The notes beneath the pieces were generated by a model. That model was not told the DNA's origin. It saw only the letters and a list, made by a program, of their open reading frames with translations, and did no database searches. This document shows positions 15,933 through 16,892 of a stretch of DNA of 64,000 nucleotides, piece after piece. How positions within the stretch are numbered: position 1 is the stretch's first letter; every line of letters starts with the position of its first letter. The stretch lies in assembly GCF_058153355.1 (NCBI RefSeq), contig NZ_CM177019.1. The stretch is one strand, 5' to 3'. The position numbers were made by a program, and so were the translations under genes.

Positions 15933-16892
15933 TTGTTTCCATTTCGTCGTAACGTTCTTGCATTTGCCGCTCTGTTGGCGCTCTCCTCCCCCGTACTTGC
16001 TGGCAAACTTGCCATCGTCATTGATGATTTTGGGTATCGCCCGCACAACGAAAACCAGGTGCTGGCGATGCCCTCCGCTATCTCCGTCGCTGTATTACCC
16101 GATTCACCGCACGCCAGAGAGATGGCGACCAAAGCGCATAACAGCGGTCACGAAGTGTTGATTCATCTGCCAATGGCACCGTTGAGTAAACAGCCGCTGG
16201 AGAAAAATACGCTGCGCCCGGAGATGAGCAGCGACGAAATTGAGCGCATTATTCGTAGTGCGGTCAATAACGTGCCCTATGCCGTGGGGATCAACAACCA
16301 CATGGGTAGCAAGATGACCTCTAACCTGTTTGGTATGCAGAAAGTGATGCAGGCACTGGCGCGTTACAATCTTTACTTCCTCGACAGCGTAACCATCGGT
16401 AATACCCAGGCGATGCGCGCCGCGCAAGGCACTGGCGTGAAGGTTATTAAACGGAAGGTGTTCCTCGACGATTCACAGAACGAAGCAGACATCCGTGTGC
16501 AGTTTAATCGTGCAATTGACCTGGCGCGTCGCAACGGTTCGACCATTGCCATTGGGCATCCTCACCCTTCAACGGTACGCGTGTTGCAACAGATGGTTTA
16601 TAACCTGCCGCCAGACATTACACTGGTGAAAGCCAGCAGCTTGCTGAATGAACCGCAGGTTGATACTTCTACACCGCCGAAAAACGCTGTGCCTGATGCA
16701 CCGCATAATCCGTTCCGTGGCGTGAAACTGTGTAAACCGAAGAAACCGCTGGAACCGGTTTATGCTAATCGCTTCTTTGAAGTATTAAGCGAAAGCATCA
16801 GCCAGAGCACGCTGATCGTTTACTTCCAGCATCAGTGGCAAGGCTGGGGCAAGCAGCCCGAAGCGGCAAAACTTAACGCTAGCGCAAATTAA
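15933..16892 (+). CDS. yibQ: Divergent polysaccharide deacetylase family protein YibQ
   Basis: 319 aa; signal peptide; position after envC. Confidence 0.8.

Follow-up and report, generated by a model that had tools for sequence, protein, structure and literature searches.

Convergent pairs account for 7% of the gene overlaps found in 338 genomes (Palleja et al. 2008, PMC2478687), and 75 convergent overlapping gene pairs have been counted in the Escherichia coli reference genome (Huvet and Stumpf 2014, PMC4161906). At the level of the transcripts, 276 of the 370 convergent E. coli operons (~75%) overlap at their 3′ ends, with a mean length of 286 nt (Conway et al. 2014, PMC4161252). Rho-dependent E. 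coli mRNAs have been described to carry a protective stem-loop devoid of a U tract, downstream of which a rut region is located (Dar and Sorek 2018, PMC6061677). Collision-type bidirectional terminators are summarized in a later preprint by Wang et al. as Rho-independent elements whose efficiency is greatest at high expression of the two genes (Ju et al. 2019, cited via bioRxiv 10.1101/2022.10.23.513370). A further type of arrangement is the excludon, in which neighboring genes on opposite strands have overlapping transcripts and show reciprocal expression (ExcludonFinder, PMC12288877).

In the present work, we examine how the tail-to-tail gene pair yibQ/waaH compares with these systems. The analysis is based on a stretch of 64,000 nucleotides (RefSeq assembly GCF_058153355.1, contig NZ_CM177019.1), called the window in the following, and on published data for K-12. 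The overlap of the two genes is already present in the RefSeq annotation of E. coli, and it is a known kind of feature. We will argue that it is most likely a passive and long-lived tail-to-tail overlap of two ORFs without a dedicated function, combined with a read-through of yibQ into waaH that is terminated by Rho. The features that will be discussed are collected in Table 1.

Table 1. Features at and around the yibQ/waaH junction, in window coordinates.
Feature	Position	Strand	Description
yibQ (sddA) CDS	15933..16892	+	319-aa ORF; final gene of the gpmM-envC-yibQ operon
RNase III-cut duplex sites (p19 capture, K-12)	16100..16186	both	5′ part of yibQ; PMC7373196, Table S3
Variable YibQ tail	16848..16889	+	14 codons past QWQGW; behaves like translated spacer
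Overlap CTAGCGCAAATTAA	16879-16892	both	14 bp; from the ORF list and the raw sequence
waaH (yibD) CDS	16879..17913	−	344-aa ORF; family-2 glycosyltransferase
Inverted repeat TAGCGC-N9-GCGCTA	16880..16900	both	spans both stops; 6-bp stem in the RNA of either strand
13-bp GC-rich hairpin	16909..16942	+	yibQ 3′ UTR, 17-50 nt past the stop; antisense within waaH
C-rich, G-poor stretch	16950..17049	+	C/G 1.37, mild; possible Rho loading region
Rho termination region	~17216 (K-12 3,789,384)	+	antisense to waaH; PMC7815308, supplementary file 2
Rho termination region	17874 (K-12 3,790,042)	−	39 nt inside waaH; PMC7815308

The gene pair

The plus-strand gene, yibQ, is located directly downstream of envC in the same operon. 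Residues 28-238 of its product match the divergent polysaccharide deacetylase domain, Pfam PF04748. YibQ, also called SddA, is a periplasmic deacetylase that acts on the denuded glycan strands of peptidoglycan; its residues 24-238 are catalytically active, and the C-terminal region is disordered and dispensable for catalysis (bioRxiv 10.1101/2025.02.18.638797). According to the same SddA study (bioRxiv 10.1101/2025.02.18.638797), the amount of SddA relative to EnvC is critical for the separation of the daughter cells.

For the opposing gene, waaH, residues 1-334 of the product match the NCBIfam equivalog NF007482 with 629 bits, and there is also a match to Pfam PF00535 (Glycos_transf_2). The gene is annotated as a UDP-glucuronate:LPS(HepIII) glycosyltransferase, and it is induced under phosphate limitation (PMC10294691). 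Over the whole gene, the waaH allele of the window is 93.5% identical to that of K-12. The strain of the window also has an IS621 insertion upstream of waaH. The names yibQ and waaH had originally been assigned by a model that read the sequence alone, and they are supported by the PF04748 and NF007482 matches and by the RefSeq labels.

Both the ORF listing and a direct reading of the sequence show that the two genes have their final 14 bp in common. The yibQ gene ends with TAA on the plus strand (16890-16892), and waaH with TAG on the minus strand, which is the reverse complement of CTA at 16879-16881. The shared bases are read as the yibQ codons (GC)T AGC GCA AAT TAA in one direction, and as the waaH codons (T)TT AAT TTG CGC TAG in the other. 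The convergent 14-bp overlap put forward in the sequence-only reading is thus exact, and the RefSeq annotation agrees with it. In K-12 MG1655, yibQ (3788101..3789060, +) and waaH (3789047..3790081, −) likewise overlap by 14 bp, and the same value is obtained for the CDSs named yibQ and waaH in the strains N96 and EC18.

An overlap of this kind might in principle be an artefact, caused by a missed frameshift or by a true yibQ stop located further upstream. Artefacts that result from 3′ extensions do make up 124 of the 178 (~70%) convergent database overlaps longer than 60 bp (PMC2478687). With its 14 bp, the yibQ/waaH overlap is, however, far below the range in which such artefacts prevail. Both of its limits are stop codons in the sequence, there is no earlier in-frame stop in yibQ, and the frame and the stop recur in thousands of independently sequenced genomes and in several genera. 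On these grounds the artefact reading was rejected, its probability being practically negligible. Since stop codons set both ends, a misannotated start codon can be ruled out as the source of the overlap as well.

The yibQ/waaH pair is a member of a well-described and common class of short convergent overlaps. To the extent that stop-drift overlaps are described in the cited sources (Rogozin et al. 2002, as quoted in PMC2478687; PMC2478687; PMC4161906), the present pair is essentially alike. The traits in common are the location of the genes on opposite strands, the extension of one ORF into the stop of its neighbor, and the conservation of the overlap. Both genes are bona fide, and yibQ is extended at its 3′ end compared to the non-overlapping orthologues. 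The present case adds to the class in two ways: the stop can be traced to its donor, the antisense of the conserved Leu/Phe/Ile-Asn codons of WaaH, and the lack of constraint on the extended tail can be measured.

Distribution of the overlap

We have examined the conservation of the junction at two levels, within E. coli and across the Enterobacteriaceae. A 1-kb query spanning the junction finds matches in 5,424 of 5,426 complete E. coli genomes, and in 99% of the E. coli genomes the 1 kb around the junction is 90-95% identical to the window. The junction is covered at an identity of at least 95% in 5,377 E. coli genomes. A shorter query of 74 nt (16872-16945), which takes in the overlap together with the neighboring hairpin, has matches in 5,379 complete E. 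coli genomes; the identity is 99% or higher in 4,484 of them (83%) and 95-99% in the remaining 895. Within E. coli, this segment varies less than the remainder of waaH does, which could reflect a selection at the nucleotide level beyond protein coding.

The survey across genera comprised 80 loci of Enterobacteriaceae that encode relatives of YibQ, and both stops were located in each of them. The 14-bp overlap was found at 13 loci from 7 genera, in E. coli, E. albertii, Salmonella enterica subsp. diarizonae, four Citrobacter species, Leclercia, an Enterobacter, Silvania and Cedecea colo. Five loci have an overlap of 4 bp. In the Citrobacter freundii group and in Kluyvera the two stops abut without any overlap, and the opposing gene there is a divergent glycosyltransferase (63-70% identity). 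A spacer of 14 nt is present in Superficieibacter, and one of 72 or 113 nt, with REP-like sequence, in Pseudocitrobacter. At one further locus (L027), for which the motif-based analysis was used, YibQ has the tail NRQK and is separated from waaH by a short positive gap. A tight apposition of the two genes, from −14 to +14, is thus found in most of the genera that carry waaH, and many genera lack waaH altogether.

Origin of the overlap

The conserved sequence of YibQ terminates at a QWQGW motif. The tail that follows falls outside the PF04748 match, and its length varies from 0 to 14 residues in 65 loci; it amounts to 12 or 14 residues in the overlap class and to 0-4 residues in most other species. 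Between genera, the amino acid identity falls from 0.89 in the catalytic domain and 0.83 in the QWQGW motif to 0.69 in the linker and 0.26 in the tail.

The C-terminus of WaaH is better conserved, the identity of the last four residues being 66% for WaaH versus 33% for YibQ. The final eight residues of WaaH follow the pattern x-R-K/S-A-[L/F/I]-N-L-R, with Ala-5 and Asn-3 unchanged in all 11 species compared. Importantly for the present discussion, the [L/F/I]-Asn codon pair (xTY AAY), at WaaH positions −4/−3, gives a TAA or TGA on the opposite strand when read in the frame of yibQ, and it is this triplet that serves as the yibQ stop throughout the overlap class. Because the C-terminus of WaaH is constrained, the overlap is fixed at 14 bp and the YibQ tail is left to drift freely. 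Since the tail changes its length by whole codons (12 or 14 residues), the frame, and with it the 14-bp figure, is preserved. The next in-frame stop of yibQ would be the TAA at 16905-16907, which is five codons beyond the present one. The comparison shows that the YibQ tail is unconstrained and that its stop is antisense to waaH codons.

These observations fit into a simple scenario. The waaH gene directly adjoins the last gene of the gpmM-envC-yibQ operon, and a yibQ of the Escherichia/Salmonella/Citrobacter type has no stop of its own after QWQGW. Translation of yibQ therefore runs through ~31 nt of what is effectively a spacer and a further 14 nt into waaH, such that the frame ends on the stop supplied by the antisense of the conserved waaH codons.

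We now turn our attention to the relatives that lack waaH, which bear on the direction of this change. Their YibQ tails are short, 0-6 residues (GKKD, GKKA, GQIKAN), and three of these loci (L015, L024 and L026) have a textbook terminator, consisting of a hairpin and a T-run, directly past yibQ. Three Citrobacter strains (L008, L011 and L081) have deleted waaH except for its last ~17 nt, and the retained nucleotides supply the tail and the stop of yibQ. In Escherichia sp. MOD1-EC7003 and in one C. amalonaticus, a waaH pseudogene is found beside an intact yibQ. The tails and terminators of the waaH-less relatives, the Citrobacter deletions and the pseudogenes therefore support an overlap that results from yibQ absorbing the spacer. 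Judging from these sequence comparisons, the overlap would have arisen when yibQ absorbed the spacer while waaH was located hard against it, that is, through the loss of a stop. Most likely, the overlap is a harmless by-product of yibQ losing its own stop codon.

Another option considered was that the overlap is maintained by selection, either because the 14 bp are under dual coding or because the YibQ tail is adaptive. The tail could, for example, be functional, or the overlap could lock waaH to the envC-yibQ operon and in this way counteract its deletion. Consistent with this option, exactly 14 bp are kept across 7 genera despite an upstream tail that gains and loses whole codons (12 or 14 residues), and the Citrobacter strains that deleted waaH retained the overlapped bases. 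In addition, 10 of 11 species agree in the third base of WaaH codon −4, from which the middle base of the yibQ stop is formed; at most other synonymous third positions the agreement is 45-73%. However, this statistic is partly circular, as it is that stop that defines the class, and we have for this reason set it aside as evidence for selection. The tail sequence is, moreover, essentially unconstrained (26% identity), and other species have abutting stops, a 4-bp overlap or a real spacer. It is important to note that waaH has been lost, pseudogenized or replaced many times beside an intact yibQ, which means that the overlap gives waaH no protection from loss. A selected overlap is thus very improbable, and the loss of the yibQ stop remains our preferred explanation.

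Termination of the yibQ transcript

For both strands we have searched for intrinsic terminators near the stops, the requirement being a GC-rich hairpin with at least five U within 8 nt. No intrinsic terminator was found at the junction in a scan of 15800-18500 on both strands. Five weak intragenic candidates are present in these 2.7 kb, a number in keeping with that expected from shuffled sequences (2.5 ± 1.6). The ones nearest to the junction are weak 6-bp stems within yibQ, located at 16797-16816 and 16743-16761; the former, a minus-strand candidate, is not conserved across genera and was discarded. A search of the region 12000-22000 (E ≤ 1) gave no Rfam families at the junction. The Rfam matches that were obtained in the same region are REP-like and flank an IS element.

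Two RNA structures are, on the other hand, predicted at or close to the junction. The first one is the inverted repeat that spans both stops; in 18 species, 72% of its cells are paired, and an excess of covariation is not seen. The second is the 13-bp hairpin, which has a folding energy of −23 kcal/mol (z −4.96), a stability reached by none of 200 shuffled sequences. Downstream of it comes CAUAAGCGG, without a U tract. In E. coli and E. albertii the substitutions are found in the loop and the stems do not vary, which could likewise point to selection at the nucleotide level, while other genera keep only the inner 5-7 bp. In the alignment of 18 species, 69.6% of the cells are paired, compared to 27-44% in slid controls. 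The covariation score is, however, no better than for shuffles, 158 of 500 of which reached it, and only five pairs show double changes. The hairpin may thus be a by-product of the conserved W-R-D codons of WaaH. Further downstream, the C/G ratio reaches its maximum on the plus strand in the stretch given in Table 1 and amounts to 1.17-1.26 on the minus strand, which is a weak signal. In light of the pattern reported for Rho-dependent mRNAs (PMC6061677), the weak composition of this stretch makes it a possible Rho loading region.

The transcription across the junction can be assessed using published data, all of which are from K-12, and the K-12 positions were carried to the window through an alignment with K-12. 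On the plus strand, a Rho termination region has been reported at 3,789,384, with a Rho score of 5.55 and a p value of 1.8e-15 (Adams et al. 2021, PMC7815308). The numbers of reads upstream and downstream of this point are 106 and 28 in untreated cells, and 187 and 274 upon bicyclomycin treatment (PMC7815308), and the score could be reproduced from these counts. The point lies inside waaH, at a distance of 324 nt from the yibQ stop, although the resolution of the mapping is coarse, since windows of 800 nt are used (PMC7815308). In K-12, the transcript of the yibQ operon thus exhibits the bicyclomycin-sensitive read-through of a Rho-dependent terminator, with a stable stem-loop lacking U's (16909-16942) upstream of the termination zone.

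On the minus strand, the corresponding region at 3,790,042 has 95 and 20 reads in untreated cells, and 154 and 187 with bicyclomycin, which gives a Rho score of 5.77 (PMC7815308). With Rho acting at this location, little transcription crosses waaH in rich medium. No Term-seq 3′ ends are listed between 3,786,938 and 3,790,287 in K-12, a range that includes yibQ (PMC7815308, supplementary file 1).

These results modify the view, taken in the sequence-only reading, that the overlapping stops leave no room for terminators. There is indeed no intrinsic terminator at the junction, but termination signals exist, and they are located inside waaH. The lack of intergenic space can accordingly not be equated with a lack of termination signals, as the hairpin beyond the yibQ stop is followed by Rho termination. 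The overlapping transcripts anticipated in the same reading do occur, with the K-12 plus-strand transcript crossing into waaH before it is ended by Rho.

On the basis of these data, the events at the junction can be envisioned as follows. The transcript of the yibQ operon continues antisense into waaH and is terminated by Rho a few hundred nucleotides in, and the yibQ mRNA is probably trimmed back to the hairpin. By analogy with other Rho-terminated mRNAs, the hairpin would then shield the 3′ end of the yibQ transcript. In rich medium waaH is kept at a low level, in part by Rho termination close to its 5′ end, and it is induced in low phosphate.

It is instructive to compare this behavior with the described systems. 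With an antisense run of ~324 nt, against a mean of 286 nt, yibQ is similar to the 3′ transcript overlaps of Conway et al. (PMC4161252), which, unlike the yibQ/waaH geometry, need no overlap of the ORFs. Because 276 of 370 convergent operons overlap at their 3′ ends, the overlap of the ORFs is not the cause of the transcript overlap. The yibQ transcript also follows the pattern of Dar and Sorek (PMC6061677), in that a hairpin lacking U's and a mild excess of C over G are followed by read-through sensitive to bicyclomycin. It differs from that type in that all these elements are located within the CDS of the opposite gene, and in that no Term-seq peak is listed.

Concerning the collision terminators, as they are portrayed by Wang et al. 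(Ju et al. 2019, via bioRxiv 10.1101/2022.10.23.513370), yibQ/waaH resembles them in having no canonical terminator and in having a hairpin element at the boundary. It is unlike them, on the same description, in that the plus-strand termination of yibQ depends on Rho and in that there is little transcription of waaH in rich medium. The Rho-independence of the collision type is thus not seen here, the plus-strand read-through in K-12 being sensitive to bicyclomycin.

Possible regulatory consequences

The junction could still be a functional device for convergent transcription, resembling an excludon or a bidirectional terminator of the collision type, with the hairpins as pausing element. In such a case, the induction of waaH in low phosphate would lower yibQ/sddA, either by collisions of the polymerases or by RNase III cutting of the complementary 3′ ends. 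Conversely, the 3′ UTR of yibQ would damp waaH in rich medium.

The lack of an intergenic terminator, discussed above, and the extension of plus-strand transcription ~324 nt into waaH in K-12 would fit with a device of this kind. The same is true for the palindrome and the strong hairpin at or near the junction, as hairpins are required for positioning in the published collision model. The tight apposition in most waaH-bearing genera and the high conservation of the junction within E. coli point in the same direction. On the other hand, termination on the plus strand depends on Rho, while collision terminators are described as Rho-independent, and the covariation in the hairpin is no more than the coding constraint explains. 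Furthermore, some species have the REP-like spacer of 72-113 nt at this position without any obvious consequence.

Double-stranded RNA has been captured in yibQ in K-12. Two p19 duplex sequences can be located in the window, at 16100-16120 with no mismatch and at 16166-16186 with two mismatches, and some antisense RNA hence covers yibQ in K-12. These sites are, however, 690-780 nt beyond the waaH stop, that is, ~700 nt away from the junction, and the yield of dsRNA from 3′ overlaps of convergent operons was 37.9-fold lower than that from 5′ overlaps.

A further view of the effect of waaH induction is offered by the expression data at low phosphate. In the wild type, the normalized counts of waaH are 13,872 and 11,547, to be compared to 3,032 and 2,925 in the phoB deletion (PMC10294691), which corresponds to a 4.3-fold difference (log2 2.1) in the table of that study. 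PhoB was not detected at the waaH promoter (PMC10294691). Under these conditions waaH (~12,700 counts) is much more abundant than envC (~2,260), which would fit with a device. Nevertheless, envC, which we use here as a proxy for the yibQ operon, changes only by log2 −0.4 (q 0.19) in the same comparison of wild type and phoB deletion. Furthermore, yibQ does not occur in the part of the table that was covered, whose rows below the top block are sorted by significance (PMC10294691). Although the comparison is indirect, the unchanged envC argues against strong interference.

The same data are relevant for the comparison with the excludons (PMC12288877). The likeness consists in the neighboring genes on opposite strands, the overlapping transcripts, which the K-12 data confirm for this pair, and the duplexes cut by RNase III in yibQ. 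Excludons show reciprocal expression; in the one data set considered here, the yibQ operon, as represented by envC, exhibits no significant change at a 4.3-fold change of waaH.

Taken together, a device for convergent transcription is unlikely, and the regulatory effect of the overlap is probably small. The passive overlap, which we prefer, would accordingly have no selected regulatory role. In the literature searched, no paper mentions both yibQ and waaH.

We have also considered a stronger version of the regulatory hypothesis, in which the near-invariant junction, composed of the palindrome and the 13-bp hairpin, is a selected bidirectional roadblock or antisense module that couples waaH to sddA/yibQ. 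This version is less probable still, and we regard it as highly doubtful. If it were true, the remodeling of LPS upon phosphate starvation would be coupled, via the junction, to the deacetylation of septal peptidoglycan, and strong transcription of waaH in low phosphate would lower SddA relative to EnvC.

Conclusions

As it stands, the yibQ/waaH overlap is of little significance, as it belongs to a common class and as overlapping 3′ transcripts are usual for convergent E. coli operons. It can rather serve as a worked example in two respects. It illustrates how the stop of one gene can be supplied by the antisense of conserved codons of its neighbor, and how the termination signals of an operon, here a putatively protective hairpin and a Rho zone, can be embedded in an opposing CDS. 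The overlap would become of interest for the biology of the cell if the induction of waaH altered the balance between SddA and EnvC, since this ratio affects cell separation.

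The tdh-waaH interval of the window is interrupted by an IS621-family element, which lies upstream of waaH, ~217 nt from its start. Its open reading frame encodes an IS110-like RNA-guided transposase, relatives of which carry the RefSeq name 'IS110-like element IS621 family transposase', and the element is accompanied by REP-like sequence (Rfam naRNA4 and ES036, both sub-threshold). The E. coli comparison strains K-12, N96 and EC18 have no such element at this site, and its flanks are covered by none of the best E. coli matches listed.

The insertion cuts the intrinsic terminator of tdh in two, and ~12 nt (ataccagccctt) are present on either side of it. 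What now comes after the terminator hairpin (aagggctggaataccagccc, − strand) is ttgaagctg, and the U tract (ccagcccttttatc) is displaced 1.4 kb from the hairpin, without its 5′ arm. This split could lead to kbl-tdh read-through toward waaH in the window's strain, and such putative read-through would therefore also be directed toward yibQ.

Positions of the features and contents of the yibQ-tdh slot (window positions unless stated otherwise)
Feature	Position	Detail	Source
tdh intrinsic terminator, two parts (− strand)	19573-19592 and 18118-18133		
IS621-family element	18131-19573	transposase ORF 18397-19377 (+)	NF033542, 255 bits
waaH	16879-17913		
Rho termination, waaH (− strand)	~17874 (K-12 3,790,042)		published bicyclomycin data
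p19 duplex sites in yibQ	16100-16120, 16166-16186	~700 nt past waaH stop	
Slot, state 1		empty, intrinsic terminator present	
Slot, state 2		waaH	
Slot, state 3		divergent family-2 glycosyltransferase abutting yibQ	C. freundii group, Kluyvera
Slot, state 4		co-directional gene, start MPQRHKILLLDTGKEWGGG	Enterobacter L045, L057, L065, L067

We now consider transcription of the two convergent genes. The RNase III-cut sense/antisense duplexes captured with p19 in K-12 are located in the 5′ part of yibQ (PMC7373196), and either waaH read-through or an internal promoter could be the origin of the yibQ antisense RNA. In K-12 grown in rich medium, Rho-dependent termination takes place only 39 nt inside waaH (bicyclomycin data, PMC7815308). 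Furthermore, the expression of waaH depends on PhoB, with no PhoB ChIP signal upstream of the gene (PMC10294691). Taken together, the early termination and this PhoB dependence without ChIP signal hint at a possible control of waaH at a step beyond initiation, such as an escape from Rho that is coupled to translation.

The slot downstream of yibQ, up to tdh, varies in content among the Enterobacteriaceae (loci L003-L082). In three Citrobacter strains (L008, L011 and L081) waaH is deleted (region at about 3945-4082 of these loci), leaving 119 bp from the yibQ stop to the tdh stop. The final ~17 nt of the deleted gene are retained, because they make up both the tail of yibQ and its stop codon.

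The window carries an unusually divergent waaH allele, with 93.5% identity to K-12 (down to 84–85% in some 100-nt windows) as against 97% for yibQ and gpmM. The waaH 3′ end and the yibQ/waaH junction are nearly invariant despite this divergence. Only 25 of 5,424 E. coli genomes have at least 99% identity over 16400-17400. Together with the divergence of the allele, this suggests that waaH has undergone recombination or allele turnover.
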